Assembly: GCA_030685015.1 (NCBI GenBank)
Contig: JAUXWS010000059.1
Coordinates: 87,052 to 151,051 of the forward strand
Direction of reading: 5' to 3'
Source of the DNA: a bacterium
Lineage (GTDB): Bacteria > CAIWAD01
DNA: 64,000 nucleotides
The translations under genes and the position numbers were made by a program. Position 1 is the stretch's first letter. Every line of letters starts with the position of its first letter. Shown piece after piece: positions 578-60,513 of the stretch. The notes beneath the pieces are model-generated. The model did no database searches. It saw only the letters and a program-made list of their open reading frames with translations, and was not told the DNA's origin.

Positions 578-2998
578 CTACTTGACCAGCAATACCTTTT
601 CGGCTCCGATGCGGGCGCCGTCCACCGCCAGCTCCACCAAGTAATGTCCGCTTGCCATGGCCGCGCCGTTGAACACGACCCGATGCTCGCCCGCTGCGAC
701 CGGACCATCCATCAAACGCGCAACCAGACGGCCCTGGAGATCGAACACGGACAGGCTGGCCCGGCCGGGTCGATCCAACTGGTAGCTGATGGTCGTCATT
801 GGATTGAAGGGGTTGGGCCAGGCGCCGGCGAGGCGGGCCGTCGCCGGACGCGCGCCGCCATCCGGCAGGGAATCGATCAGCTCCTCGTGGCCGAAACAAT
901 GGAAATTGAACTGGAAATTATTGAGGGGAATCAGGGCGTTGTTCACAACCCGGTAGCTGGACACCTCCTCCCAGGTGCGGGGCACCAGTGTCAGGTTGGG
1001 CACAGGTCGAGGATCACCCGGCGTCTGGAAGGATTTCAGTTCCAGGGGCAGGACTTCGATCCAGAAAGGCTGGGTGAAGGGCTCCAACAGGCCGGCCACG
1101 CTGACGCCGATCCAGTCCTCGCTGGCATCGCCGCCGGCGTAGCTCGGCGCATAGTTGTGGTCGGATTGATGGAGGAGCGTCCCATTGACGGGCAGGCCGC
1201 TCCAAACCTTCAGGCGCCAGGCACTGGCATCCTCGGGGGGGATGTTGAAGCTGGCGAAGCGAAGGCGCAGGCTGTCGAGGGCGTAGCCCATGCTGGGGCC
1301 CATCTGGGGTGGCTGGAAGCGCTGGGCGTAGCCCAGGCCCAGGGCGTCACCAGAACCGGTGGTGTGGAGGAATTCAGGATTGGTGACATCCCAGCCGTAA
1401 TCGTTGGCCAGTTCCAGGACGCCGGTCGGCCGCACGATGTAACTGGGCAGATTGAGGCGATCGTTGGGGGCGTAGCCGTCCGGCGTCATCAGGCGGATCT
1501 GTGGAAAGTGCAGGCTGGTGGCGTCCGGGGTCAGCGAGAAGGCGACGTCCACGTGCTGGTGCTGTTCCAGGCTGAAGGTGCCGCCCAGGGCTGTCGGCAG
1601 GTTGTCCATGTAGAGGGACCACTGGACATCCTGCGCCTGGTTGAGACCGAAGTTCTGGAAGGTGGCGGTGCCGGGAATGGGCCGCCCCAGGGTCCGCGGG
1701 TACGGCAGGCGGAACTCCGTCACACCCACGTCATTGGGCAACAGGGGAGATCCCACCACGCGGAAATCGTCCACGAAGAAGCCGGTTCCGGTGCCGCCGT
1801 CGTGGTTGTTGTCCGTCTGGACCCGGAAGCGGAAGAAGACGAGATTGCCGCCCAGGAAGCTCACGTTGGTGGAGCGTCCGTGGCCGCCCCCATCCATGAA
1901 GTGGTACCACTGCCCGCTGCCCGTTTCCGTGTCGTAGTAGTCATAGAAAAGGGAGCGCCAGACGAAACCATCCAGGCTGTACTCCAGCAGGAAGTAGTCG
2001 TCCAGGCTGCTGTCGCCGTCGCCATCGTAGTCCAGCAGGTCGACCTTGGTCCAGAAGTCGATGAGCATGGTGTAGTTGGCCGGCAGGAAGATGGGGGGGC
2101 TGTAGATCACGTTGCTGATGGGCACTGCCTGGTTGGCCACTTGACAATGCACGCTGAAGGGACTGCTGTGGAAGGTGGTGGAGACGGCCCAGTGGTCGCC
2201 CGCCGCCGGCACGCCGGAGTAATGAAGGGTGGGTCCGGGGGTGTCCACGCCGTCGGCATTGTTCTGCAGCAGGATGAGGGCTCCGTCCGCCACCTGGATG
2301 TTGTCCAGCTGCATGCCGGTCAGGGCATCGTCATCCGGAAAGGATGTGTAGTCGTCGCTGGCGAAGGCGAAACGGATGCGGGTGGCGGTGGAACGATAGG
2401 GCGTCAGGTCGCAGACGGCATTGCGCCAGGTGTTGCCCAGCCCGGCCCAGCCCGCCCGGATGCCATGGCCGAAGATTTCCCCGAAGGCGAAGGCGTTGCT
2501 TACCGTGTAGGCCGGCGTCGAGGGCGTGAGCAGCTGCCAGGGTCCGGCGCCCATCTTCACTTCCACGTGGCAGGCATCCCACCCATCGTAGGGGGCGGGG
2601 GCACCGGCCGGGCTCTCCAGCGCCCAGAAGAGGTTGAAGGTAAGCTGCGGGCTGGTGGTGGCGCTCAAATTGAGGGGCGGCAGCTCCAGGAAGAGCAGGG
2701 TGTGGTCCAGGTAGCCGCCCACGTCGACGCTGGCGGACCACCAGTTCCAGGAGCCATCGAAACTGTTGAAGCTGCTCATGTGCCAGGTGCTGCCCTGGTC
2801 GGTCAAGTCCTGGCTGGTCCAACCGTCAAAGCCGGTGATGAAGTTCACCTCGTAAAGTGTCGTGTCCGTCCGGCTGGCATCCCGCTGCACGGGGGGCGGG
2901 AAATCTCGCGTCTCCACCCGGAAGGGGCTGAAGCTTGCGTGGGCAAGTCCCGCCAGGAGCAGCAGGAGGCACAATGCAGAAGCGCGCCGCTTGGCCAT
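578..2998 (-). CDS. large secreted protein with a C-terminal FlgD-Ig / T9SS type-A-like sorting domain
   Basis: ORF 578..3103. Start moved to the ATG at 2998, which begins the signal peptide MAKRRASALCLLLLLAGLAHA. The C-terminal ~80 aa read WPNPFNPMTTISYQL...VFDLQGRLVARL...SGHYLVEL, typical of the Por/T9SS C-terminal sorting domain. Confidence 0.7.
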   Translation of the reverse strand: MAKRRASALCLLLLLAGLAHASFSPFRVETRDFPPPVQRDASRTDTTLYEVNFITGFDGWTSQDLTDQGSTWHMSSFNSFDGSWNWWSASVDVGGYLDHTLLFLELPPLNLSATTSPQLTFNLFWALESPAGAPAPYDGWDACHVEVKMGAGPWQLLTPSTPAYTVSNAFAFGEIFGHGIRAGWAGLGNTWRNAVCDLTPYRSTATRIRFAFASDDYTSFPDDDALTGMQLDNIQVADGALILLQNNADGVDTPGPTLHYSGVPAAGDHWAVSTTFHSSPFSVHCQVANQAVPISNVIYSPPIFLPANYTMLIDFWTKVDLLDYDGDGDSSLDDYFLLEYSLDGFVWRSLFYDYYDTETGSGQWYHFMDGGGHGRSTNVSFLGGNLVFFRFRVQTDNNHDGGTGTGFFVDDFRVVGSPLLPNDVGVTEFRLPYPRTLGRPIPGTATFQNFGLNQAQDVQWSLYMDNLPTALGGTFSLEQHQHVDVAFSLTPDATSLHFPQIRLMTPDGYAPNDRLNLPSYIVRPTGVLELANDYGWDVTNPEFLHTTGSGDALGLGYAQRFQPPQMGPSMGYALDSLRLRFASFNIPPEDASAWRLKVWSGLPVNGTLLHQSDHNYAPSYAGGDASEDWIGVSVAGLLEPFTQPFWIEVLPLELKSFQTPGDPRPVPNLTLVPRTWEEVSSYRVVNNALIPLNNFQFNFHCFGHEELIDSLPDGGARPATARLAGAWPNPFNPMTTISYQLDRPGRASLSVFDLQGRLVARLMDGPVAAGEHRVVFNGAAMASGHYLVELAVDGARIGAEKVLLVK

Positions 2999-3129
2999 GG
3001 GAAGTTCCTCCTCGACAACGCACCTGGAGCCATGATCAGGTGCCGTTGAATACCGCATGCGGCGGAAGGGTGAATCGTCCCTTCTCGCGTGGATCGCCGC
3101 CAATGTGTGGATCGGTTGCCGCCGGGCGC

Positions 3130-49215: not shown

Positions 49216-50408
49216 TCAGGCCGTGCGCGTCACGGTCAGCCGCACCTGGCCGTGGTTGTTCTTGTAGAAGTTCCAGGCCTCGTTGGCGTGGCAGCAAAGG
49301 TAGCCGGCGCGGGACGGCGTGCGGCTGTGGGCCGTGCCGATGCGGAAGGTCTCCAGGGGAGCAGGCGTGCCGTCCGGCCCCGGATCGCCGCCGTTGGCGA
49401 TGGCGCCCATGAGGGCCATCCAGGGCTCCTGCTCGGCCCGCCGCGTGCCCCAGAAATCCGCCTCCTCGTTGCCGGTCACCTTCTTCACCAGTTGTTCGAA
49501 GCGACCCCAGACCCCCGCGGCGACGTGAATCAATTCACCCTTGTCGAAGCGGCCATCCTTGGTGCCCCCTGGGGCCGCAGACCAGGTCGCGGTCCATCCA
49601 CTGGCCCTCGGCACTGGACTCGCAAGTGGCGCCCGCCTACAGCCAGAGGCCAGTGATGTTCCAACGGTCGGCGGGCGTAAATGGCCAGCTGGCAGGATTC
49701 ACCCACGGCGAGCTGTTGCGTCCGCCGGCAGGGCGCTTGGAGGATGGGCGGATCCTCCAGGCGCTTGAGGGCGGTGGAATGGATGTGATCGTCGCCGCTC
49801 GTCAGTTTTGGCGTGTGGCGGGGCTGGGTGCGCAGCAGCTTGAAGACGCCGGAGCAAGAGTCGTGCAGGACGTCCTGGTGGTTGGGGCGGACCTGGCGCA
49901 GCATGCCCGGCTTGAAGGCCTAACCCTGGGCCTGGGCCTCCTCGATCATCCACTGCAGAGCGCCGTTGGAGAGGCCGGTCTCGGCGTAGCCGCCCCCCAC
50001 GTCGCAGTGCACGCCGCGCTTCCAGCGGTCGACGTCGGACAAGCCGGTCAGATCGGGCAGGCCGCAGGCCGACATCAGTCCGGCCAGACTGCGCACCGTG
50101 CAGGCGCCGCGGCTGAAGCCGATAAGGAAGAGGCGGCCGCCGTCCTGCACGTTGCGGCAGAGCCAGTGCCAGGCGCTGAGGATGTTCTTGCTCAGCCCTT
50201 CGCCCACGCTGCCGCCCTTGGCCTTCTCCCACCATCTGTCTTCGGTGCCCGCGCCGGGATGGTGTTAGGCCAACTGGTGCCTGCCCTGGGCGTCTGTCTC
50301 GGCCAGCGCGTTGTGGAGACGCACCACGTTGGCGGGGACAGGAGTGCCGCTCTCGTCCTGGTCGGGTGTGCTCCAGGTGCCGTCGCAGCAGATAACCAGC
50401 CGCCGCAT
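49216..50408 (-). pseudogene. disrupted DUF2235 (T6SS Tle1-lipase-like alpha/beta hydrolase) gene. In-frame TAA at 50265..50267 and TAG at 49920..49922, plus a frameshift in 49530..49614.
   Basis: N-terminal fragment MRRLVICCDGTWSTPD...NVVRL carries the DUF2235 CDGTW and NVxRL blocks. The next same-frame fragment has GFSRGA (GxSxG) and GVHCDVGGGY. Four consecutive ORF-track pieces lie on one strand. Confidence 0.5.
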
Positions 50409-50541: not shown

Positions 50542-52572
50542 TCATGGGCGCCGACGGTCCGGGTTGTGGAAGTAGTTGAAGCGCCAGAGCGCCTCGTCGC
50601 CATGGCAAGTGGCGCACAGGGTCTCGCTGCTCTCGGCCGTGAGGAATTGCACTCGTCCATGCTCACGACCTTCGCGCCAGGGCTGATGTGGATTGTGACA
50701 GGTGCGGCAATCCACATGCAGGTAGCGTCGCTCTTCCGGAACGATGGAGGGCAGCGGCCCCTTTTCCCAGGCGGGGTGGAACCAGGCCTTGGGCACGCGC
50801 TGTCCGACTCCGGAGTCGTGGTGGCAGGCCAAGCAGCCGATGGCGCCGGTTGTCCAATTGTCGGGCTGCCGTTCCCGGCTTCCTTCGGCCCAGTCCGATT
50901 CGGGCATGAGATGACCCAGGTTCGATCCGGCCACGGCGGAGCTGAGCAGGGCCGGCGTGGCCGCCTGGTGCGGACTGTGGCAGGCTGCGCAGGGATTGGG
51001 CGATTCGCCGGGCATTCCGCGCCGGTCGTGCATGCTGCCCAGGATGGAGCCCTGGTTGGTATGGCAGTCCATGCACAAGGCGCCGTCATGATTGCCCGCG
51101 CGAAGGAAACTGGAGGCATCGTCGCCGTTCATGCCCCGTGCCCATGCAGCCCCGACGGGACTCCACTGGTGTGGGTCGTGGCAGGTTTCGCAGCCGATGC
51201 GCTCATCCGCAAGGCGTGGCAGCCAGGAAGGCCGGAGGGCTCCGATTCCCCTTCCCACCGGATGGCTGAATTCACCCACGGAGCTGAGCCCCGGAGTGTT
51301 GGCTGCGGCATCCTCGTGACAGCGAAGGCACAGGCGCGTGGCCGGGCTTAGCAGGCCGGCCTCGGCGGGACCATCGGGACTGGTGGCCAGCACGTCGCGG
51401 CCGTGGGCATCGTGACAACTGCTGCAGCGCCACACCGACTGACCCGAGAGGGAGATGAAAAGCGGTTCGTCGGCGCCATGGTCGGAGGCCAGAATGGAAG
51501 CTTGGCCTGGGTGGCAACTCAGGCAAAGGCCATCTTCAGCCTGGTCCATGCGCCGCAGGAAACTGGTTCCCGGCGTGCCGGGCTGGCCTGCGTCGGTCTC
51601 GCCTCCGACGGACCACCGATGCGGATCGTGGCAGGTGATGCAAGCCACGTGGCCTTGTCGCAGGGGCAAGTCGCCACTTCCCTCCGGCACCGCGCCCAAG
51701 GGATGGCCCCAGGCATGCGCGGCGTCCTCGCTGTGGGATTGCGGCGCCGCGTGACAGCGTTGGCAAAGGGCGTTGCCGCGAGAGTCGGGCGAGGCGTTGG
51801 CGTGGGGCGCATGACAGGTCGAGCAGGCGTCGTGCTCCCCGGGCTTCCCACTGGACAGGCTGTGACGGGTGGACAGGACCTCCTGTTGCGGCTCATGGCA
51901 TGCGGCACACAGCCTGCCACGATCCTTGCCCTCCGTGTTCCGCGTGGGATGCGCGCTGTGCATCTTGTGGCAACTGAGGCATTCCACCCGGTCCCGCGGG
52001 GTGAAGGAATTGGTCAGCGAAGCGCCTCGACCATCCTTGAGCTGTGCGTGGATCGGGTGATTCCCGGCATTGCCCGCGTGGTCCGCATGACAGTTGAGGC
52101 AAAGCTCCGAGGCGAGAATGCCGTCTCGGATGAAGGGCGACAGCTCGTACTTGCGCCCCATTTTGTGCGTGTGCGGCGTGTGGCAGGTGCCGCAATAGAC
52201 GTCGCCATTCAGGTCGAGCGGAAGACTGCCCGTGGAAAAACCCTTGGGGAGTTTCCGCAAATGGATGTCGCCGGGGCGAAACGCAGTGCGGCTGTCCTTC
52301 ACGTAGCCATCGTGGCAGGACCAGCACATTTCTTCCGAGCTGTTGCGCGCCGGCTCGCCGTCCAGGATCACCGGGTTCTTCAGGGGAGGCAGGAAGGGCT
52401 CCAGGCGGTCAAAATCGTCGCCCCAGTTGATATGGCAGATGATGCACTGACGGAGGTGCTCGGCGCGCGATACCACGGCAAGGCTGTTGGATGAAGCACA
52501 CAGCAATGCCAGCAGGAGGACGCGAAAGGTCAGGTTCTGGCTTGGGATCACAAGGGGCCGGATCTTGGCCAT
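50542..52572 (-). CDS. multiheme c-type cytochrome with 18 CxxCH motifs, secreted
   Basis: Signal peptide MAKIRPLVIPSQNLTFRVLLLALLCASS. I counted 18 CxxCH motifs in the translation. Confidence 0.85.
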   Translation of the reverse strand: MAKIRPLVIPSQNLTFRVLLLALLCASSNSLAVVSRAEHLRQCIICHINWGDDFDRLEPFLPPLKNPVILDGEPARNSSEEMCWSCHDGYVKDSRTAFRPGDIHLRKLPKGFSTGSLPLDLNGDVYCGTCHTPHTHKMGRKYELSPFIRDGILASELCLNCHADHAGNAGNHPIHAQLKDGRGASLTNSFTPRDRVECLSCHKMHSAHPTRNTEGKDRGRLCAACHEPQQEVLSTRHSLSSGKPGEHDACSTCHAPHANASPDSRGNALCQRCHAAPQSHSEDAAHAWGHPLGAVPEGSGDLPLRQGHVACITCHDPHRWSVGGETDAGQPGTPGTSFLRRMDQAEDGLCLSCHPGQASILASDHGADEPLFISLSGQSVWRCSSCHDAHGRDVLATSPDGPAEAGLLSPATRLCLRCHEDAAANTPGLSSVGEFSHPVGRGIGALRPSWLPRLADERIGCETCHDPHQWSPVGAAWARGMNGDDASSFLRAGNHDGALCMDCHTNQGSILGSMHDRRGMPGESPNPCAACHSPHQAATPALLSSAVAGSNLGHLMPESDWAEGSRERQPDNWTTGAIGCLACHHDSGVGQRVPKAWFHPAWEKGPLPSIVPEERRYLHVDCRTCHNPHQPWREGREHGRVQFLTAESSETLCATCHGDEALWRFNYFHNPDRRRP

Positions 52573-52798
52573 GGAGGCCTCCGCGGGGATGAAGAGAATG
52601 TGCTTCCGTCAGAACAGGAGTCGGTGGCCAACGGCCGCAGGGGGCGATAGCCTCAATTGTGAAACTGTTGCCAAGTTAATCCCCGTCGTGGGCAATTCAA
52701 GTGCAAGCCAGCGGGTTTCCAACTTGACATGGCAGCTTTCGTCACAGACCTTGAATCGACGAAAGCCGTTGGCAAGTTGAGTTCATGCTGGCCTTGGG

Positions 52799-53542
52799 AT
52801 GTGTATGAAGATCCGGATCCTGTTCCTGTTTTTGTTGACGGCGGCGGTTGCCGCGGGCGCCGCCGGTGCCGGGCGGCCCTCTCCCAAGGGCGCATGCCTG
52901 GTCTGTCACAAGTTGAAGACGCCAAATTTGTACGCGGACTGGCACTCCTCCGCCCATGCCAAGAACGGAGTGACCTGCCTGGACTGCCATGAGGCGCGGG
53001 CCAGCGAACCGGATTCCTATGCCCATGGTGGAGCCACCATTTCACTTTTCGTGACCCCGAAGGATTGCGCCGGATGCCATGAGGTGGAGACAAGCCAGTA
53101 CGCGCGCTCCGGACACGCCGGCGCCGCTGTGGATCTGGAGAGCATCGACCCCGGGCTGCGCGCCAATTACGGCGAGCCCGGGTCCTGCAGCAAGTGCCAT
53201 GGTGGTCACGCCCGTCGCGATCCCGACCGGCCCATCGGCCAGCCCGTGGTGCCCCGTCCGGAACACGGCGTGGGTCGCCTGAACCAGGACGGATCGCTGG
53301 GGGCCTGCACGCCTTGTCATGCCGAACACCGCTTTGCCAGGGACGTGGCGCGCAAAGACTCAACTTGCACGGCCTGCCACGGGGAGGAACACCGTCCCCG
53401 GCATGAAGGCGCCATTCTTGCCGCCGGCGGACGGCGCGCGGGCGTGCCCCCCCTGGACAGTCAAGTGGCGTGCGCCAGTTGCCACATGTCCGTGGGGCGG
53501 GGGCGGCCAGTGTCGCATCTCATCCAGCGCAAGGGACAGTGA
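52799..53542 (+). CDS. multiheme c-type cytochrome with 7 CxxCH motifs, secreted
   Basis: Signal peptide MKIRILFLFLLTAAVAAGAAGA. Motifs CLVCH, CLDCH, CAGCH, CSKCH, CTPCH, CTACH and CASCH. Confidence 0.8.
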   Translation: MCMKIRILFLFLLTAAVAAGAAGAGRPSPKGACLVCHKLKTPNLYADWHSSAHAKNGVTCLDCHEARASEPDSYAHGGATISLFVTPKDCAGCHEVETSQYARSGHAGAAVDLESIDPGLRANYGEPGSCSKCHGGHARRDPDRPIGQPVVPRPEHGVGRLNQDGSLGACTPCHAEHRFARDVARKDSTCTACHGEEHRPRHEGAILAAGGRRAGVPPLDSQVACASCHMSVGRGRPVSHLIQRKGQ

Positions 53543-53605
53543 CCGCTGTGCTTCCGCACGTCCAGTTAGAGTGCCTCAGCCCATTCCAGTAGTCTCGGAG
53601 CCGAC

Positions 53606-55204
53606 ATGAACCTGGCGTACTTCAGAAACATCTGGCTGGCGGTGTTGCGCAGTCTGGCCATCAACAACATCAGTCGCGCCGGCGTGGCCATCACGACCTC
53701 GGCATTCGTCTCCTTCTTCTTCTTTGAGATCAGCATGCTGACCGGGGTCCTTCACAACCCCTACGTGGGCATGATCACCTACCTGGGCATTCCCATGCTG
53801 TTCATCCTGGGCCTGATGTTGATCCCGATCAGCTGGGTGTGGGAGGCACGACGCCGGAAATGCAGCATCAAGGCCCTGTTGTGGGAGAGGTTCGATCGAC
53901 GCATGCTGGAGCGTCGTGCGCGCGGCGCATTGGCCTTGCGTGTGCTGGTCATCATGAGCTTCGTCAATGTGGGCTTCATCAGCGTGGTGGGATTCCAGGC
54001 GGCCAAGCACATGGACGAATCTGAATTCTGCGGCACCACGTGCCACACGGTGATGGGTCCGGAATGGGCCGTGTATCAGGGGTCTCCGCACGCCCGTGTG
54101 CAATGCGTGCATTGTCACATCGGCGAAGGCGTGGGTGCCCTGGTGGACGCCAAGCTCAACGGCGCGTGGCAGATGATCGCCCTGTCCCTGGGCATCTATG
54201 AACGGCCGATTCCCACTCCGGTCCACAACTTGCGCCCGGCCCGCTTCACCTGCGAGAAGTGTCATTGGCCCGCGCTTTTCCACGGCAACCAATTCAAGAA
54301 CATCGTTCACTACGAAGAGGACGAAAGCTCCACGCCGCGCCACACGACCCTGATGATGAAGACCGGGTCGGGCGAGCCGGGGCATGAGCACGGCAGTCAT
54401 TGGCACGTGTCCCCCAGCAATCAAGTGCATTACGCGTCCCTGGATGACAAGGGCGAAACCATGGTCTGGGTTGACATGCGGTTGCCCGACGGAGGGGTGC
54501 GTCGCTACCACAACAAGTCCTTGTCGAAGGCGGACGCCGAGCGTGCTGGACTAACACACACGATGGACTGCGTGGATTGCCACAACCGGGCCACGCATGT
54601 CTTCGAGCTGCCTGCGGTTGCCGTGGATCAGCGGATTCGCCTGGGACTCATCAGCCGGGATCTGCCCTACATCAAGCGTCAGGCGCTGGCCGCTCTTGTG
54701 CAGGCGTACCCTGATCGCGACGCCGCGATGACGGGGATTGACGCAAGCATTCGCGGATTCTATCATCAGGAATACCCCGAACTTGCCATGGCCCGCGCCA
54801 CCGCCCTGGACTCCGCGGTCACGACGGTGCAGGCCATCCACCGGCGCAACATTCATCCGGACATGAAGGTGGTCTGGGGGAGCTACCCCAACCACCTGGG
54901 TCACGGCAGCACCTCAGGGGGCTGTTTTCGGTGTCACAATCAAGACATGGTGGATGATTCGGGAGCCGGCATCCCGGACGACTGCGTGCTCTGTCATTCG
55001 ATCCTCTCCAACGACGAGCCGGAGCCTTATCTCTATCTGTTCCGGCCGGACGAGTACGCGCCGCGGGAAACACAGGAGATGCAGCGATTCCTGCGGACGG
55101 AATTCTGGGAATACACACGGGATGCAGTGGAAAAGGGCGCCCGCCCGAATCAGTCACCACCGGACTGGTTCAACAAGGCGGCGGGCCGCGAATCCGGGGA
55201 TTGA
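53606..55204 (+). CDS. membrane-anchored multiheme cytochrome c with two N-terminal TM helices, 5 CxxCH and 1 CxxxCH; NapC/NirT or ImcH-like architecture
   Basis: TM helices VAITTSAFVSFFFF and ITYLGIPMLFILGLMLIPI. Heme motifs CGTTCH (CX3CH), CVHCH, CEKCH, CVDCH, CFRCH and CVLCH. Confidence 0.8.
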   Translation: MNLAYFRNIWLAVLRSLAINNISRAGVAITTSAFVSFFFFEISMLTGVLHNPYVGMITYLGIPMLFILGLMLIPISWVWEARRRKCSIKALLWERFDRRMLERRARGALALRVLVIMSFVNVGFISVVGFQAAKHMDESEFCGTTCHTVMGPEWAVYQGSPHARVQCVHCHIGEGVGALVDAKLNGAWQMIALSLGIYERPIPTPVHNLRPARFTCEKCHWPALFHGNQFKNIVHYEEDESSTPRHTTLMMKTGSGEPGHEHGSHWHVSPSNQVHYASLDDKGETMVWVDMRLPDGGVRRYHNKSLSKADAERAGLTHTMDCVDCHNRATHVFELPAVAVDQRIRLGLISRDLPYIKRQALAALVQAYPDRDAAMTGIDASIRGFYHQEYPELAMARATALDSAVTTVQAIHRRNIHPDMKVVWGSYPNHLGHGSTSGGCFRCHNQDMVDDSGAGIPDDCVLCHSILSNDEPEPYLYLFRPDEYAPRETQEMQRFLRTEFWEYTRDAVEKGARPNQSPPDWFNKAAGRESGD

Positions 55205-55497
55205 GCGTCGGTGAAGGTCACCTTGGAACCCCGATGCATCGCCGCGGGCCGGGTCGATCGAATCGGGCGCATTCACAGTCCAGTTGGGCGGCACAGGTAG
55301 CGCCTCAGATATACATTAGGCGTAAAACAAAACCGGTCATTTTTTCAAACCAAATGTTAGGTTCTTGACGGGCTGGCGATGCGGGTCATTCCACGCTCCG
55401 TTCCGTGTTCCAGCCGAACGTTGCGCATTCCTGATCGATCGAACTTCCAGGGCGGCCGGCCATGGCTGCTTGCGCCCGAAGCCCCAGGAGCCCGCGC

Positions 55498-56259
55498 ATG
55501 AAGTCCTGCACCAGACGTTGCGTCCTTGCTGCCCCATTGGCGCTGCTTGTGTTTGTGGTGGCCATGCCCGCCATATCCGCAACCGACACCTGCCTGGATT
55601 GCCACGCGTCTCCAGATTTGAAGGTGCGCGCCCCCGGTCTGCAAGCCTGCTACCAAGCCTGGCGCAATTCTCCTCATGCCAAGGCCGGCGTAGGGTGCGC
55701 GGACTGCCACGGCGGCGGCGATGCGGCCACCCGGGACCAGTGCCCTTCCACGTCGGAACGGAATGTCAACGACTTCCGCCGGATACCCGAGACCTGCGGC
55801 CAGTGCCATCAGGTTCTTCTGATGACCTTTCGCGAGAGCGTGCACTTCACCCAGCTTCAGGAGGCTGAAGCGGGGAAGGAAGGGCCCAATTGCGTGACCT
55901 GTCACGGCTCCATGGGAGCATCTCGAGTGGAAACCGCCCAAGTGGAGGCTTTGTGCGCCACCTGTCATGACGGTGTTCGTGCGTCCGACGATGGAATTCC
56001 CGCACGAGCGCGATCCGTTCTTGAGGTTCTATTGGGCGTGCGGCAGTTCAGCGCATGGCTGGGACTTCATACCCAGGACCCCGAACTGGAGGTGAACGAG
56101 CGAAGCAAGCAGATCGCTCATTGGCATAGATTCGAACTGGCCGCCCTTGAAATGCAAAGCGCAAAACAACTGGAGGAATTGAAAGCCCGAGTGAATGATG
56201 TTCGGGTCAAGGAAGGCCAGCTTCGACGTGAAAAGCGAAAACTGGGGCAGAAGGAATAG
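55498..56259 (+). CDS. multiheme c-type cytochrome with 5 CxxCH motifs and a C-terminal coiled-coil
   Basis: ORF 55462..56259, with start at the ATG for MKSCTRRCVLAAPLALLVFVVAMPAISA. Motifs CLDCH, CADCH, CGQCH, CVTCH and CATCH. Confidence 0.75.
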   Translation: MKSCTRRCVLAAPLALLVFVVAMPAISATDTCLDCHASPDLKVRAPGLQACYQAWRNSPHAKAGVGCADCHGGGDAATRDQCPSTSERNVNDFRRIPETCGQCHQVLLMTFRESVHFTQLQEAEAGKEGPNCVTCHGSMGASRVETAQVEALCATCHDGVRASDDGIPARARSVLEVLLGVRQFSAWLGLHTQDPELEVNERSKQIAHWHRFELAALEMQSAKQLEELKARVNDVRVKEGQLRREKRKLGQKE

Positions 56260-56465
56260 AACGGGAAGCGGTTAAGCAGTAGACGGCGTTTGCGATGTGG
56301 AGAGAAGTTGATAAACGAAGTTAATTGTCGCCTTAAGGCTACTACAGATAACAGCATCAGATCGAGATCATAGATATAAACCGGTACTCAAACATGTGTT
56401 GGCTGAAGGTAGCCTACGAGTCCTTATGCAATTTCTAAGCAATCCGATGAAGAAAGGAGACAACC

Positions 56466-57404
56466 GTGGAGAAGGAAGAACGTGTTCATGACAGGCATGA
56501 CCCTCGACATGGCAGCAGGACCCAGGGGGAACATGTGTCGTTGGGCGGAACCCTGCGCGCCGTTGTCTTCATCCTGCCCGTGGCGGTGCTTGCCCTGATC
56601 CTGTTGTCCATGTCATCCCGCGGGGCCATGACGCTGACCTCGGCGATCATGGTGTTGGCAATCCTGATGATAATCCTTGGCATCGTTGTATCGGGCATCC
56701 GCGTTGCAGCCCAATGGGAGCGCGGAGTCGTCCTGCGCCTAGGCAATTTCCGCTCGGTCAAGGGCCCCGGACCACTCTACATTGTTCCAATCTTCGAGAG
56801 TGTCCGCTTCATCGATACCCGCCTGCTGGTCTTGAACATTCCTCGGCAGAAGGTCATCACCAAGGACAATGTGCCGGCGGAGATCGATGGCGCGCTCTTC
56901 TTCATGGTTTCGGACAGCCAGAAGGCGGTGATCACAATCCAGGACTTCCGTTTTGCCGTAGCGCAGTATGCCCAGGCTGCACTTAGGGACATCGTCGGCG
57001 GATTGACCTTGGACGAACTGCTCTCGGAACGGGAGCAAATCCAGGCCCACATCAAGGAGCATGTGGAGCAGCGGGTCAAGGATTGGGGACTGAGCGTGGA
57101 TTCCATCCAGCTCCAGGACATCGAGCTGCCGGAGGATCTGAAGCGAATGATGTCCAGGCAGGCGTCCGCTGAAAGGGAGAAGCGCGCCACCATCACCAAG
57201 GCCGAGGGCGACATGCTGGCGGCGACGAATCTGGCGGAGGCAGCCAGGATCATGTCGGCCAGCCCCATCACCCTGCAACTTCGGACCCTGCAGATGATCG
57301 ACGGCCTGGGTGCCAGCCAGTCCAACACGGTCATTTTGTTTCCCGCGCAGATGGGGGAGCTGCTTGAAAGCCTTGCCGCCGGTCGTGCCAGGGCCAACGA
57401 ATAG
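56466..57404 (+). CDS. SPFH/band-7 (stomatin-prohibitin-like, slipin) membrane protein
   Basis: GTG start preceded by an AAAGGAG RBS. TM helix VVFILPVAVLALILL, followed by an SPFH domain and a coiled-coil. Confidence 0.85.
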   Translation: MEKEERVHDRHDPRHGSRTQGEHVSLGGTLRAVVFILPVAVLALILLSMSSRGAMTLTSAIMVLAILMIILGIVVSGIRVAAQWERGVVLRLGNFRSVKGPGPLYIVPIFESVRFIDTRLLVLNIPRQKVITKDNVPAEIDGALFFMVSDSQKAVITIQDFRFAVAQYAQAALRDIVGGLTLDELLSEREQIQAHIKEHVEQRVKDWGLSVDSIQLQDIELPEDLKRMMSRQASAEREKRATITKAEGDMLAATNLAEAARIMSASPITLQLRTLQMIDGLGASQSNTVILFPAQMGELLESLAAGRARANE

Positions 57405-57501
57405 GGGAAGTGCCCATGGTTGAAACATCCTCCAAGGGTGCGCCACAAGGGCGGTGGCCGGCCTTCCGTTCGCGCTGCAATCATGGCCTGAATCGGGCGC
57501 G

Positions 57502-58335
57502 GATATGATCCGGATTTCATTGCTGGTCATGTTGGCGGCCTGTCTGCATGGCAGGGTCGGACATGGTGTCGAGACTCCCGCCCACAATGACAGGGTCAAG
57601 TTGCTCTGGGAGTTCCATGGCTACTATCCCTGCATGGACTGCCATTTCAACCAGGAGACCAACCGGAGGCCCCGGGTGCTTGAAATGGAGCACGAGAAGC
57701 CTCTGGATTGGATGGACGACGACGGCGTGATTCACCGCGTGGAATTCGGCGAGCGCCTGCCTTTGGCGGAACTTCTTGGGAAGGGGCAGGCTCGTGGCCT
57801 GCGCCGGGAGACACTGGAGCGCATCGGACGGCGCATGAATCTGCGCGACCACATGTCCGCCCAAGGCCTTGGCGTAACGGACTCGATCTGGGTGCTGACG
57901 CATGGTGGTGGCAATGTGTGGTGCCTGGATTGCCACTCAGCCAGCGAACGGGACATGCTGGTGCTGCATGATGGCAGCCTGTTGAGTTTCAATGAAAGCC
58001 AGAGGCTGTGCGGGCAATGTCACGGGCCCACACTGATTGACTGGGATGCGGGAGCCCACGGCCGCACCAATGGCTACTGGAATCTGGAGTTGGACTCCAC
58101 GGGCATCAGCAGGCGCTTGTTGTGCGTGGAGTGCCACAACCCTCACGCGCCAGCCTTCCGCGGCATGATGCCTCTTGCCGGACCCGTCAACCGACTTGAC
58201 AACATTTCTCAACCCGCCCCTGGCACGCACAGAAAAGAAACCATCAAAGGGACGCGGGATGATATGGGGCCGCAGCCATGGCAGACTTCGCCGCGAAACG
58301 GGACGAGCGATCGCTCCAGGGAGGGCAACCCGTGA
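57502..58335 (+). CDS. tetraheme c-type cytochrome (4 CxxCH), periplasmic partner of the downstream NrfC/NrfD-like module
   Basis: ORF 57454..58335, with start at the ATG for MIRISLLVMLAACLHG. Motifs CMDCH, CLDCH, CGQCH and CVECH. Confidence 0.7.
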   Translation, partial: DMIRISLLVMLAACLHGRVGHGVETPAHNDRVKLLWEFHGYYPCMDCHFNQETNRRPRVLEMEHEKPLDWMDDDGVIHRVEFGERLPLAELLGKGQARGLRRETLERIGRRMNLRDHMSAQGLGVTDSIWVLTHGGGNVWCLDCHSASERDMLVLHDGSLLSFNESQRLCGQCHGPTLIDWDAGAHGRTNGYWNLELDSTGISRRLLCVECHNPHAPAFRGMMPLAGPVNRLDNISQPAPGTHRKETIKGTRDDMGPQPWQTSPRNGTSDRSREGNP

Positions 58336-59273
58336 AGCCCAGCAAAAAGAACATGATGCGGGGCCGCGCGGACTCCGTGGACCGGCGCGGATTCCTCAAG
58401 GCCATGGCATCCACGGTCGCCGCCCTGAGCCTGCCCGTGTTGAGCAAGGACGCCGGGGCCTTCTCCTGGGATGAGTTTTTCCAGAAGCATTTCTATGAGC
58501 TAAGTCGGGAAGAACTGGAAAAGCGGATCAAGCGCCTCGAAAAGGAATACAACGAGAAGTTCCACAGGACGGACTTCAGCGTGAGCACCGATGGCCCGCT
58601 CAAGGATGTGCGCTTTGCCTACGCGCTAAGCCTGTCCAAGTGCATCGGTTGCAGGAAGTGCGTACACGCCTGCGTGGCGGAGAACAATCAGCACCGGGGT
58701 AGCGAATCGCGCCGGGACGTGGTGGAGTACATCCGCGTTCTGGAAATGGAGAAAGGTTCGCTGGACCTGGAGAAAGCCGTCCACGACTACAGCCACCCGG
58801 TTCCCGCGGAAGGCAAGTACTACATGCCCGTGCAGTGCCATCACTGCAACAACGCGCCCTGCACGAAAGTCTGTCCCGTGGAAGCCACTTGGCAGGAAGT
58901 GGACGGCATCGTTGTCGTCGACTACGAATGGTGCATCGGATGCCGTTACTGCCAGGCGGCCTGCCCCTACTTCGCCCGGCGCTTCAACTTCAGCGAGCCC
59001 AGGCTTCCGGAGGCGGAAGTCAATCCCGTGACCCATTACCTGGGCAATCGCCCGCGGAGCAAGGGGGTCATGGAAAAATGCACCTTTTGCATCCAGCGCA
59101 CACGCAGGGGATTGAATCCCGCCTGCCTGGACGTCTGCCCCACAGGCAGCCGGAAGTTCGGCAACCTGCTCGACCCAGATAGCGAAATCCGCTACATCAT
59201 CAATAACAAGCGGGTGTTCATCCTCAAGGAAGAACTGGGCACGATGTCCAGCTTCTACTATTACTTCGATTGA
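58332..59273 (+). CDS. Tat-exported 4Fe-4S ferredoxin-type iron-sulfur subunit (NrfC/PsrB/HybA family)
   Basis: GTG at 58332 overlaps the cytochrome stop (GTGA). The ATG at 58353 is an alternative. Twin-arginine motif RRGFLKAMAS. Four Cys clusters: CIGCRKCVHAC, CHHCNNAPC, CIGCRYCQAAC and CTFC...C. Confidence 0.8.
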   Translation: MKPSKKNMMRGRADSVDRRGFLKAMASTVAALSLPVLSKDAGAFSWDEFFQKHFYELSREELEKRIKRLEKEYNEKFHRTDFSVSTDGPLKDVRFAYALSLSKCIGCRKCVHACVAENNQHRGSESRRDVVEYIRVLEMEKGSLDLEKAVHDYSHPVPAEGKYYMPVQCHHCNNAPCTKVCPVEATWQEVDGIVVVDYEWCIGCRYCQAACPYFARRFNFSEPRLPEAEVNPVTHYLGNRPRSKGVMEKCTFCIQRTRRGLNPACLDVCPTGSRKFGNLLDPDSEIRYIINNKRVFILKEELGTMSSFYYYFD

Positions 59274-59280
59274 AGAGGGC

Positions 59281-60513
59281 GTGGTGGTCCATATCAGTCT
59301 TTACCCTCGCTTCGTCATTGATGCCATGCGTTCGATGATGGGGGATTCGGGGCTTTACCGACTTTGGTTGGTTTCCTTGTCGTGCCTGATTGGAGCAGGA
59401 GGATGGGCCTACGCCCAGCAGCTCGAATCCGGTCTGGCCGTGACGGGGATGAGCGATCAAGTTTCCTGGGGCGTCTACATCGCCAATTTCACCTTTCTCG
59501 TGGGCGTCGCCGCGGCGGCCGTCATGATGGTGATCCCGGGCTACCTGTATCACATCAAGGAAGTCAAGGACGGCGTCCTGATCGGTGAAATGGTTGCCAT
59601 TGGCGCCATCATCATGTGCCTGCTCTTCGTGGTGGTTGACCTCGGCCGCCCGGACCGGATCTGGCACATGATTCCCGGAATCGGCCGCTTCAATTTCCCC
59701 ATGTCACTGCTAAGCTGGGATGTGGTAGTCCTGAACGGTTACCTGTTGTTGAATCTGCACATCCCTGGATACATCCTCTATCAAAGGTGGTTGGGAAAGG
59801 AGCCGAGAAGGGGATACTACATGCCCTTCGTTTACATGAGCGTGGTCTGGGCAGTCAGCATCCACACCGTCACGGCGTTCCTGTACAATGGATTGGGTGG
59901 GCGACCTTTCTGGAACACGGCCATCCTTGCCCCTCGCTTCATCGCCAGTGCCTTCACGGCTGGCCCGGCCTTCATCATCCTCGTGCTTTATCTGGTAAGG
60001 CGGTACACGGACTTTCATGTGGATGGCCGGCTCTTCCGCTTCCTGCGCATGGTGGTGTTGATCTGCGGCCTGATCAACCTGTTCCTCCTGGGCAGCGAGG
60101 TGTTCACCGAGTTCTACACAGACTCCACACATGTGGCAAGCGCCCGCTACCTCTACTTTGGCCTGCATGGACACACGGCCCTTGTTCCCTGGATCTGGGC
60201 TTCCGTCGGCATGAACGTGCTGGCCATCCTGATGCTGCTGTCGCGACGCTTCGAGTTCAGCACCACGGCACTGAAAGCCCTGCCCTTGGTACTGCTGATT
60301 GTGGCCATCTGGATTGAGAAGGGCATGGGCTTGATCATCCCCGGTTTCATCCCGACTCCCCTTGGGGAGATCTTCGAGTACATGCCATCCGCGACGGAGA
60401 CGTTGATCTGCCTGGGAGTCTGGGCGGTGGGCTTGCTGGTCATGACCCTGCTGATCAAGTTCGCCACGGACGTGGAGACGGGCCGGATCAGCGCTCCCAG
60501 AACGGAGTTCTGA
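59281..60513 (+). CDS. NrfD/PsrC-family integral membrane quinol-interacting subunit
   Basis: 410 aa with ~8-10 TM helices. The sequence pattern matches polysulfide-reductase NrfD-like membrane anchors. It lies immediately downstream of the Fe-S subunit. Confidence 0.8.
   Translation: MVVHISLYPRFVIDAMRSMMGDSGLYRLWLVSLSCLIGAGGWAYAQQLESGLAVTGMSDQVSWGVYIANFTFLVGVAAAAVMMVIPGYLYHIKEVKDGVLIGEMVAIGAIIMCLLFVVVDLGRPDRIWHMIPGIGRFNFPMSLLSWDVVVLNGYLLLNLHIPGYILYQRWLGKEPRRGYYMPFVYMSVVWAVSIHTVTAFLYNGLGGRPFWNTAILAPRFIASAFTAGPAFIILVLYLVRRYTDFHVDGRLFRFLRMVVLICGLINLFLLGSEVFTEFYTDSTHVASARYLYFGLHGHTALVPWIWASVGMNVLAILMLLSRRFEFSTTALKALPLVLLIVAIWIEKGMGLIIPGFIPTPLGEIFEYMPSATETLICLGVWAVGLLVMTLLIKFATDVETGRISAPRTEF

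Follow-up and report, generated by a model that had tools for sequence, protein, structure and literature searches.

The 64-kb stretch of DNA analysed here (the window), from a Delongbacteria-like MAG, holds eight neighbouring genes, five of them crowded with haem-binding motifs. Where would such a locus take its electrons from, and where would it deliver them? An earlier note read it as one conduit leading from quinol to the periplasm and on to the outside of the cell.

Gene and haem-motif content

All eight open reading frames of that note, A to H, are present where it placed them. Gene calls put the true starts probably inside the longest frames (B 52805, D 55498, F 57505 or 57454, G 58332). 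The features are as follows.

50542..52572, minus strand: A, secreted 18-haem c-type cytochrome of 676 aa, putative MtrA-like haem wire, divergent from B-C
52573..52804, no strand: A-B intergenic, divergent region, presumed site of promoters
52805..53542, plus strand: B, periplasmic 7-haem cytochrome, short form of the imcH-accompanying cytochrome family
53606..55204, plus strand: C, predicted ImcH-family inner-membrane multi-haem quinol oxidase of 532 aa
55498..56259, plus strand: D, periplasmic 5-haem cytochrome with a charged helical C-terminal tail, F-G-H partner
56466..57404, plus strand: E, stomatin-type SPFH membrane protein, apparently inserted between D and F in this lineage only
57454..58335 (start likely 57505), plus strand: F, tetrahaem subunit of an NrfCD-type complex, LAAC lipobox in the signal peptide
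58332..59273, plus strand: G, Tat-exported 4x[4Fe-4S] subunit of the DsrO/NrfC/PsrB family, GTG start
59281..60513, plus strand: H, NrfD-family integral membrane quinone-binding subunit, DsrP type, GTG start

About 40 haem-binding motifs in five multihaem cytochromes had been claimed, and the motif count agrees: 39 CxxCH and one CxxxCH, 40 in all, lie across five reading frames in 50542-58335. A carries 18 CxxCH, B seven, C five (plus CGTTCH, a CX3CH), D five and F four. Outside the cluster, the six frames of the 64-kb window contain just four CxxCH, so the clustering is far above chance.

The earlier note had left room for these cytochromes being canonical NrfA or MccA subunits. Membership of a nitrite or sulfite reductase is ruled out: a motif search found no CxxCK in any cytochrome of the cluster, all scores against NrfA, NrfB, MccA-like and Otr models fall far below cut-off, and housekeeping genes flank the locus in three related genomes. 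No catalytic haem was found among the cluster cytochromes either.

An ImcH-type cytochrome and its neighbours

Cytochrome C was described as having two transmembrane helices; we find three (residues 25-49, 52-82 and 105-133). The CGTTCH motif follows at residue 142, immediately past the third helix, with CxxCH at residues 167, 216, 322, 440 and 460. This pattern of helices, CX3CH and CX2CH is common to all of the best 120 of more than 4300 homologues. The protein scores 29.1 bits against Pfam NapC/NirT (cut-off 24.1) and matches NrfH in the PDB (2j7a_C, 2e-4).

Judged by this architecture, C is an ImcH-type inner-membrane cytochrome, and the proposed ImcH-like entry point holds. It shares with ImcH of Geobacter sulfurreducens (GSU3259; Zhong and Shi 2018, PMC6295460) the three N-terminal helices, the CX3CH beside the third of them, the NapC/NirT-like region and a neighbouring c-type cytochrome gene. 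The likeness is one of architecture and spacing, the first six haem motifs being almost identically placed (25/49/106/118/20 in C, 24/49/106/117/20 in GSU3259). However, GSU3259 has seven motifs and C six: the C-terminal one near residue 486 is missing from C, as it is from the homologues of Anaeromyxobacter, Acidobacteria, Zixibacteria and Geothrix, and the C-terminal tail of C is about 25 residues longer. The published list of ImcH proteins (PMC6295460) is without Delongbacteria, the group that the host of C resembles. The alternative label, CbcL-like, had to be dropped: nothing in the cluster fits it, and a cytochrome b domain is absent. As for function, ImcH of Geobacter is reported to oxidise quinol when the acceptor lies above -0.1 V (PMC5322298). 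ImcH homologues are also common in bacteria without known mineral respiration, an observation that counts against the electron-output reading developed below.

B appears, from its gene neighbourhoods, to be a conserved partner of ImcH. A homologue stands immediately 5' of an ImcH-type gene in about 28 loci, there as a protein of 441-473 aa with 8 haems, and all seven haem motifs of B are invariant across 29 sequences. In locus L090, a long-form gene of the same family precedes an F-G-H trio; one carrier family would thus serve both kinds of quinol module.

A resembles an electron carrier. Its 18 haem motifs, together with 16 further histidines, are invariant among 39 homologues, and the best match of its structure model is MtrA. 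Unlike MtrA, which forms the decahaem wire in MtrCAB (PDB 6r2q), A fits 18 haems in 676 aa and is without an adjacent MtrB-like barrel or MtrC-like partner; its score of 74.8 stays far short of the family cut-off of 192. The absence of an outer-membrane porin-cytochrome partner from the window, already remarked upon, extends to the related loci: neither a porin nor a surface-sorting domain or signal was found in the window or in any of them. A has no lipobox in any of these loci, and with all three features absent the sequence gives extracellular transfer no support. The region between A and B shares a block of about 35 nt, including TTGACA, with locus L004; a consensus promoter scan of it gave matches no better than chance.

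The F-G-H trio and its partners D and E

The NrfC/NrfD-like quinol module of the earlier note was recovered as F-G-H. The three genes are translationally coupled, as proposed: the stop of F and the start of G overlap as GTGA (58332-58335), preceded by GGAGGG, and G and H are separated by 7 nt rather than 8 (the stop of G ends at 59273, the GTG of H is at 59281).

All four CxxCH of F are invariant among 32 homologues. The protein belongs to a broad family of tetrahaem proteins of about 200 aa (934 representatives at E<=1e-10), from which it is set apart by about 58 extra residues inserted past haem 1; its structure model (pLDDT 58) is too poor for use. In every locus examined, the F homologue is followed by FeS and NrfD genes. 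G has 16 cysteines in four groups of four and a visible twin-arginine motif, DRRGFLK; it reaches 179.5 bits against NCBIfam DsrO (cut-off 200) and matches ArrB (2e-31) and PsrB (3e-29) in the PDB. H has about 10 hydrophobic segments and matches Pfam NrfD (4e-40) and NCBIfam DsrP (418 bits, cut-off 350). With H above the DsrP cut-off and G closest to DsrO, the two fit a quinol-oxidising NrfCD pair.

Several known systems share this design. In E. coli, the NrfBCD quinol dehydrogenase consists of a multi-haem cytochrome, an NrfC-like FeS protein and an NrfD-like membrane subunit; the NrfBCD-like NetBCD of Aeromonas reportedly feeds an extracellular electron transfer conduit. F-G-H has the same make-up, but against the NrfB, NrfC and NrfD models its scores stay far short of the cut-offs, and neither NrfA nor MtrCAB is nearby. 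By layout, Cbc4 of G. sulfurreducens (CbcS-CbcT-CbcU, GSU0068-0070) has the same gene order and three subunits: its tetrahaem cytochrome is tethered to the membrane and is followed by a 4x[4Fe-4S] protein and a subunit integral to the membrane. Cbc4 is proposed to pass electrons from menaquinol to periplasmic cytochromes (bioRxiv 10.1101/2025.04.14.648717). CbcS, however, is a TM-anchored, NapC/NirT-like protein of 160 aa, whereas F has 276 aa, a cleavable or lipoprotein signal and no NapC/NirT match in Pfam.

DsrO/DsrP homologues also lie outside dsr operons, beside a bis-His tetrahaem cytochrome, in cable bacteria, some Desulfobulbales and Gamma/Betaproteobacteria (DsrOhPh-tetrahaem), where quinol-to-periplasm transfer has been suggested (PMC13047784). 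The likeness is again in gene layout: here the cytochrome comes first, the TMH1 gene of that locus was not found, and the extra partners are pentahaem D, stomatin E and the ImcH module. With DsrMKJOP itself, F-G-H has in common the NrfD subunit as likely site of quinol oxidation; cryo-EM work assigns quinol oxidation and periplasmic proton release to DsrP (bioRxiv 10.64898/2026.08.25.746951). F-G-H as a Dsr complex was rejected, since it has a tetrahaem cytochrome and lacks DsrM, DsrK and DsrJ.

D has full-length homologues (28-33% identity) adjoining F-G-H in L087, L088 and L089. The SPFH identity of E is confirmed by Band_7 (1.5e-39), PH stomatin (3bk6, 9e-43) and human stomatin (1e-42). Like the prokaryotic stomatins PH1511 and QmcA, it combines a complete SPFH domain with a membrane anchor at the N-terminus, where hydrophobic segments lie; in contrast to them, it lies within a cytochrome operon, and Pfam finds no NfeD partner among the cluster proteins. 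E turned up in the window and in L004 alone (79% identical), its stop codon in L004 running into the start of F, and it was not found in L087 to L092. From this distribution, it appears to be a lineage-specific insertion and a conserved part of neither module.

Two modules and the direction of electron flow

One Delongbacteria MAG and one Calditrichaeota MAG have A/B/C but not D-H, and D/F/G/H occur without ImcH in four other loci, the trio being accompanied there by a D-like or B-like cytochrome. Each set being found without the other, gene content points to two joined modules with separate evolutionary histories. Of the proposed conduit, the ImcH and NrfC/NrfD quinol modules remain; its unitary layout does not, and its extracellular end lacks both porin and sorting signal. 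In L008, imcH adjoins a CbcL-like gene, by analogy a precedent for a pair of quinol oxidases at a single locus.

We hold it somewhat probable that the two modules are independent menaquinol:cytochrome c oxidoreductases working in parallel, a composite respiratory electron-output locus feeding periplasmic multi-haem carriers. They could instead be functionally unrelated neighbours, D-F-G-H being a general quinol dehydrogenase for a soluble-substrate reductase elsewhere (e.g. NapAB or NrfA), only A/B/C forming the ImcH pathway and no electrons leaving the cell. We think this unlikely, though it has several facts on its side. Relatives of F-G-H, short-form trios, adjoin napD-napA-napB in L091 and L092 (G 52-54% and H 55% identical, against 68-78% for H in L087 to L090) and nrfH-nrfA in L091; nap accessory and molybdenum-cofactor genes lie less than 8 kb from D-F-G-H in L087; the Delongbacteria locus L005, syntenic in all else, lacks D-H; and a porin is absent. 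Yet the 64-kb window contains no nap, nrf or other reductase genes, D-H lie directly 3' of imcH on the same strand in both the window and L004, and the F subfamily bearing the insertion always has a multi-haem partner and never a reductase gene. The B-family cytochrome before F-G-H in L090 likewise ties the trio to the carrier network of ImcH. Deletion of cbcS in Geobacter, which gave no Fe(III)/Mn(IV) phenotype (bioRxiv 10.1101/2025.04.14.648717), counts against electron output.

Could the electrons run inward, from a donor in the periplasm or outside the cell (for instance Fe(II), reduced humics, another cell acting as partner, or H2/formate by way of cytochromes), with F-G-H reducing menaquinone electrogenically as Qrc does? 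NrfD/FeS dimers are reversible redox modules, and complexes of the NrfD type are able to work backwards: QrcABCD, a cytochrome c3:menaquinone oxidoreductase, reduces menaquinone (PMC6303296, PMC13059093). The haem chains, being bis-His, have no intrinsic direction. Even so, we judge inward flow improbable: one study reported ImcH homologues from Fe(III) reducers alone, with none in oxidisers (PMC6295460), H is nearest to DsrP and far from QrcD (31 bits, cut-off 570), oxidase genes of the Cyc2 or MtoAB type are absent, and the Nap-linked relatives of the trio fit an electron-output role. That one cytochrome, most plausibly A, is a catalytic reductase of nitrite, hydroxylamine, sulfite or tetrathionate supplied by the others is very unlikely: CxxCK, CX15CH and other active-site motifs are absent, NCBIfam scores are far below cut-off, 16 extra invariant histidines for 18 haems suggest mostly six-coordinate haems, and the best structural match of A, MtrA, is a non-catalytic wire. 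Least credible of all is a role in dissimilatory sulfur metabolism with G and H as true DsrO and DsrP. H does exceed the DsrP equivalog cut-off and DsrO is the top match of G, but dsrM, dsrK, dsrJ, dsrAB and dsrC are missing from the window and L004, F is tetrahaem rather than trihaem and matches no DsrJ model, and tetrahaem-linked DsrOP homologues occur in organisms without sulfur metabolism (PMC13047784).

In the composite electron-output locus that we propose, C would oxidise menaquinol on the periplasmic side of the inner membrane and pass electrons through its six haems to B and then probably to A, the A-B link being suggested by gene adjacency in four loci. In parallel, H would oxidise menaquinol with release of protons to the periplasm, and electrons would pass along the four [4Fe-4S] clusters of G to F and on to D, much as proposed for Cbc4 and the cable-bacterial DsrOhPh-tetrahaem (bioRxiv 10.1101/2025.04.14.648717; PMC13047784). 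A possible role for E, which is transcribed together with F-G-H, is to act as a scaffold for the membrane complex or to keep it stable. Both modules would load one shared pool of bis-His periplasmic multi-haem carriers, from which electrons may also be exported past the outer membrane. The likely purpose would be the respiration of an acceptor beyond the cytoplasmic membrane, with two entry points that may be tuned to differing redox potentials, as are ImcH, CbcL and CbcBA in Geobacter.

Composition and genomic setting of the cytochrome cluster

Eight open reading frames, A to H, occupy positions 50542–60513 of the window, and five of them encode c-type cytochromes:

Haem-binding motifs of the cluster cytochromes (window 50542–60513)
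A, minus strand, 18 CxxCH
B, plus strand, 7 CxxCH
C, plus strand, 5 CxxCH and one CGTTCH (CX3CH)
D, plus strand, 5 CxxCH
F, plus strand, 4 CxxCH

The 40 haem sites (39 CxxCH and one CX3CH) bear out the earlier note's estimate of about 40 motifs in five multihaem cytochromes; in the remainder of the 64-kb window, all six frames yield just four CxxCH. Without exception, the 39 homologues of A retain all 18 of its motifs and 16 additional histidines; all 7 motifs of B (29 sequences) and all 4 of F (32 sequences) are likewise invariant. The other three genes encode a stomatin (E), a 4x[4Fe-4S] protein (G) and a membrane protein (H). F and G overlap by GTGA at 58332–58335, as described before, with a GGAGGG box 5' of the overlap, and H starts 7 nt (not 8 nt) past the stop of G.

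A scan for promoters and terminators gave counts no higher than shuffled expectation. In the divergent A/B intergenic region (window 52720–52760), a block of about 35 nt (CTTGACATGGCAGC...CAGACCTTG) is common to the 78%-identical relative L004 and not to L005, a Delongbacteria MAG with identical flanks; it may be a promoter or operator. Beyond this block, the region contains no sigma-54 or operator motif, and nothing in it is conserved in L005.

Independent assemblies of three samples gave the window sequence, and F matches a protein of an NCBI MAG at 100% identity. Outside the cluster, the window encodes housekeeping functions: Lon, helicases, Mur ligases, RlmN, M48 peptidases, LemA, an MFS transporter, a two-component system and valS. 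This remainder holds no other cytochrome, reductase or recognisable porin. The flanking order DUF4139, MsrB, Tle1-like gene, cluster, valS is common to the window, L004 and L005, the last named Candidatus Delongbacteria by NCBI; ValS of the window is 80% identical to that of both. Judging from this shared order and the ValS identity, the host is a high-GC bacterium of the FCB-type phyla, close to Delongbacteria (Fibrobacterota–Chlorobiota–Bacteroidota and allies). Some window ORFs have a coding-type GC3 signal and no Pfam match at 1e-4:

Window ORFs with coding-type GC3 signal and no Pfam match at 1e-4
578–3103, minus strand, 841 aa
6597–10667, plus strand, 1356 aa
41935–43515, minus strand, 526 aa
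43871–45382, minus strand, 503 aa

The Tle1-like gene adjoining A (DUF2235/PF09994; window 49219–50408, minus strand) has become a pseudogene: about 110 codons (residues 130–238) of the 504-aa gene that is intact in L004 are gone, and at least two frame changes are present. These breaks are identical in three independent assemblies and are therefore no sequencing error. All eight cluster genes have a third-position GC of 0.65–0.81, versus 0.88–0.97 for the flanking genes, while the homologous genes in L004 and L005 match their flanks (0.85–0.96). A donor of lower GC may have supplied the window copy as a replacement, or the codon pressure on this copy may differ. L004 carries an insertion downstream of H and before valS, made up of a PMT_2 glycosyltransferase gene (L004:16915–18177, minus strand; GC 37.5%, that of the genome being about 69%) and three small ORFs. 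Gene gain and loss appear to concentrate at this site, delimited by the Tle1-like gene and valS.

The ImcH-type protein C and its cytochrome partners

By the published definition, an ImcH homologue has three TM helices at its N-terminus, an adjoining CX3CH of atypical form and between five and nine CX2CH (Zhong and Shi, PMC6295460). C has all of these features. Three hydrophobic helices, in place of the two first counted, are seen in its hydropathy profile (segments 25–49, 52–82 and 105–133; the TM segments of GSU3259 are 13–35, 45–67 and 100–122, PMC6295460). CGTTCH at residue 142 comes right after the third helix: C142, C146 and H147 are invariant among 17 homologues, and CX3CH is found in 120 of the 120 best ones. 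The motifs of C, five CX2CH among them, lie at positions 142, 167, 216, 322, 440 and 460, those of GSU3259 at 132, 156, 205, 311, 428, 448 and 486 (Table S3, PMC6295460). The resulting spacing is that of the family: 25/49/106/118/20, versus 24/49/106/117/20 in GSU3259 and 24/49/109/117/20 in Zixibacteria RBG-1. Only the seventh motif of GSU3259 is missing, and six-motif members like C occur in Anaeromyxobacter, Acidobacteria, Zixibacteria and Geothrix (PMC6295460). All 120 best homologues have the six-motif fingerprint; none of the C homologues matches an entry of Table S3 (PMC6295460) exactly in length plus motifs.

C also resembles NapC/NirT: PF03264 scores 29.1 bits (cut-off 24.1) over residues 112–191, from the third helix to haem 2, and the NrfH structure 2j7a_C is matched at 2e-4 over residues 103–220. 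Homologues number more than 4300, measure about 500 aa and carry no annotation beyond 'NapC/NirT family cytochrome c'; relatives at 38–42% identity come from Acidobacteriota and Holophagae, both of which the published ImcH list includes. Because of its helices, CX3CH, motif spacing, and NapC/NirT and NrfH matches, we file C as a predicted ImcH-family protein, by architecture and the published motif positions of GSU3259. This upholds the ImcH-like inner-membrane entry proposed in the earlier note. The CbcL-like entry named alongside it was discarded, as no cytochrome b domain is present in the cluster. In Geobacter, ImcH is needed for acceptors above about -0.1 V (PMC5322298).

We scanned species-representative genomes for imcH synteny and examined the best 80 of at least 597 related loci; these 80 all come from FCB-type phyla or Acidobacteriota. 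In about 28 FCB-type loci among these best 80, the gene immediately upstream of that for ImcH belongs to the B family; in many Acidobacteriota loci of the same set this position is taken by another cytochrome of about 11 haems. B-family cytochromes at imcH loci usually have 441–473 aa and 8 haems. Relative to this form, seen at 26 other loci, B of the window (52805–53542, plus strand; 245–247 aa, 7 haems) is truncated, and it is also short in L004 (259-aa ORF, 7 haems) and L005 (225 aa). A Crp/Fnr-family regulator lies a few kb upstream of the B–imcH pair in 24 of the examined loci, for example at L012:5955–6632 (plus strand); none is found near the cluster in the window. Published surveys describe imcH genes beside cytochrome genes, without adjacent mtrAB.

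A sequence search of A against the PDB gave no match. As it has a Sec-type N-terminus, with neither lipobox nor secretion-tail domain, A would by default be periplasmic.

The F-G-H trio and the stomatin E

In F, G and H, a tetrahaem gene adjoins co-oriented, coupled FeS and NrfD genes, and this trio recurs in L004 and in six further loci (L087 to L092). G contains 16 cysteines in four groups of four, i.e. four cubane sites, and a visible twin-arginine motif, DRRGFLK, although the Pfam TAT_signal model scores 16.3 bits, under its cut-off of 22.7. H is a Pfam NrfD-family membrane protein. The quinol module had been described as NrfC/NrfD-like, which holds; its nearest models are DsrO and DsrP. 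H exceeds the cut-off of the DsrP equivalog NF045798 (NCBIfam; 418 bits, cut-off 350), and G remains below that of DsrO NF045797 (179.5 bits, cut-off 200), which is still its best match.

A DsrMKJOP complex was rejected: H passes as DsrP, but G falls short of DsrO, neither DsrM nor DsrK is encoded in the window or L004, and F gives no DsrJ match, being a tetrahaem protein where DsrJ is trihaem. The same architecture of tetrahaem, FeS and NrfD-type subunits is found in two known systems. Cbc4 of Geobacter comprises the tetrahaem CbcS, the 4x[4Fe-4S] CbcT and the membrane subunit CbcU, and is a proposed menaquinol:cytochrome oxidoreductase with no phenotype yet (bioRxiv 10.1101/2025.04.14.648717). 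A DsrOhPh-tetrahaem locus occurs in cable bacteria and some Proteobacteria, including organisms without sulfur metabolism, and quinol-to-periplasm electron transfer has been speculated for it (PMC13047784). For DsrMKJOP itself, a cryo-EM preprint places quinol oxidation at DsrP, with protons released to the periplasm (bioRxiv 10.64898/2026.08.25.746951).

F has no PF03264 match of the NapC/NirT type described for CbcS, only weak Paired_CXXCH and c7 matches. Its family profile, run against 1.84 billion representatives, retrieved only two full-length clusters and 934 matches at E<=1e-10, tetrahaem proteins of about 200 aa; F corresponds to this family, enlarged by about 58 residues that are inserted behind haem 1. 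A conserved lipoprotein anchor was ruled out for the F subfamily, most close homologues having ordinary signal peptides; many short-form relatives have lipoboxes. The AF2 model of F (pLDDT 58) was too poor for a fold search. No plausible small ORF, such as a TMH1-like gene, was found in the C–D and D–E gaps.

Short-form tetrahaem–FeS–NrfD trios stand directly beside napD-napA-napB at L091:2327–11318 and L092:6001–12204, the former also beside an Rrf2 regulator and nrfH-nrfA; their G and H counterparts are 52–54% and 55% identical to those of the window. This placement suggests that in these organisms periplasmic nitrate reductase has the short-form trio as its quinol dehydrogenase. It argues for the trio as a general quinol dehydrogenase delivering electrons to periplasmic acceptors. 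At L090, the trio follows a B-family cytochrome of the long form, which shares 42% identity with the partner of imcH in the Calditrichaeota MAG L006, and an Rnf operon (rnfCDGEA and apbE; L090:1711–7031, plus strand) lies immediately upstream of both.

E has an SPFH domain (PF01145, 136 bits; PDB stomatins, about 1e-42) and an N-terminal membrane anchor, its hydrophobic region spanning residues 23–85. None of the cluster proteins matches NfeD, and no small ORF in the gaps adjoining E is plausible. The E stop codon and the F start codon overlap in L004, which makes co-transcription of E with F-G-H probable. As read from these loci, E was inserted specifically in the lineage of the window. The earlier note called an SPFH scaffold in a cytochrome operon unusual: the gene is indeed embedded, and by tblastn an E-like gene accompanies just one of about 80 other imcH loci (best 80 of at least 597), which rules out SPFH as a conserved feature of such loci. 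L006 has a flotillin-type SPFH gene 1.8 kb downstream of imcH (L006:13305–14855, plus strand); this is another subfamily than that of E and probably a coincidence.

Two quinol modules and their possible electron acceptors

L004 carries all eight genes in the order of the window. L005 has only A (divergent), B and C, followed directly by valS, and L006 a divergent A-like gene, a B-like gene and C. Conversely, L087, L088 and L089 encode F-G-H with neither an ImcH gene nor an SPFH gene (G and H 68–70% identical to the window, F about 51%), each with a D-like cytochrome of 236–240 aa at 28–33% identity over its full length. Since A/B/C occurs without D–H in two loci, and F-G-H with a D-like cytochrome and without ImcH in three, the cluster is, on gene content, two modules, A/B/C and D/F/G/H. 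The single quinol-to-exterior conduit of the earlier note is thus retained for its quinol modules (ImcH-type C, DsrO/DsrP-like G and H) and not for its unity, the two being separately conserved. An Ignavibacteriales MAG, L008, provides a precedent for two quinol oxidases in one locus: there, an 800-aa multihaem protein with a C-terminal, CbcL-like cytochrome b561 domain (L008:5580–7982, minus strand) adjoins an ImcH-type gene.

Cofactor content, family assignments, the F-G-H coupling and the modular conservation are observed; the direction of flow, the order of carriers, their acceptor and the role of the stomatin E we infer. Electrons from menaquinol would enter at two parallel points, C to B to A and H to G to F to D. 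Both routes would deliver into one shared pool of periplasmic multihaem carriers with mostly bis-His ligation, and E may scaffold the membrane complex. A single network fed by both modules is argued chiefly by the pairing of a B-family carrier with either of them. The scheme would parallel the potential-specialised ImcH, CbcL and CbcBA routes of Geobacter.

The acceptor might also be a reductase. The case named in advance as fatal to the conduit, cytochromes that are canonical Nrf or Mcc subunits, did not materialise: CxxCK is absent from all cluster proteins, no catalytic cytochrome with a CxxCK or CX15CH haem (NrfABCD, MccACD, Otr) exceeds its family cut-off, NrfA models reach 19–27 bits against cut-offs of 595–692, NrfB, NrfC and NrfD stay far under theirs, and the cluster is flanked by valS and the Tle1-like gene. 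Module 2 (D/F/G/H) may nevertheless serve a soluble-substrate reductase encoded elsewhere, and the trio relatives adjoining nap genes in L091 and L092 speak for this. As for export, no MtrA/DmsE-family decahaem exceeds its cut-off. No beta-barrel porin gene is found among the Pfam-matched ORFs of the window; the absence of a recognisable porin–cytochrome partner reported earlier is thereby confirmed. Among the best 80 of at least 597 imcH loci no beta-barrel gene is conserved, and across 83 related loci there is no conserved non-cytochrome neighbour of the porin kind. Nothing in the sequence supports transfer across the outer membrane, which leaves the extracellular part of the proposed conduit unsupported.

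A more far-reaching reading, which we hold to be improbable, sees in the trio a widespread type of quinol dehydrogenase, with over 900 cluster representatives, that is functionally interchangeable with ImcH, as the same B-family cytochrome pairs with either. Here it would have been recruited into an electron-export operon feeding an 18-haem wire of sufficient length to span the periplasm, with a stomatin cage organising the membrane complex. If so, stomatin would be a dedicated scaffold for a bacterial respiratory supercomplex.

Every protein of the cluster falls in a recognisable family, and the locus implies no new principle. What is new is the joining of ImcH and a DsrOP-homologue/tetrahaem module in one operon-like array, the stomatin gene embedded in it, the pairing of B-family cytochromes with either module and the trio relatives that flank nap genes. 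Of all steps in extracellular and periplasmic electron transfer, that of the ImcH-type and NrfCD-type quinol oxidases is understood least, and Cbc4 and the DsrOP-homologue complex of cable bacteria both lack an assigned function. Across this locus and its relatives, both module types use one periplasmic cytochrome family, and they swap in and out of a single genomic site in an uncultured lineage. The nap adjacency of trio relatives gives Cbc4-like complexes a testable function, and, through the stomatin gene in the operon, the idea that SPFH proteins organise respiratory complexes of bacteria becomes accessible to simple genetics.
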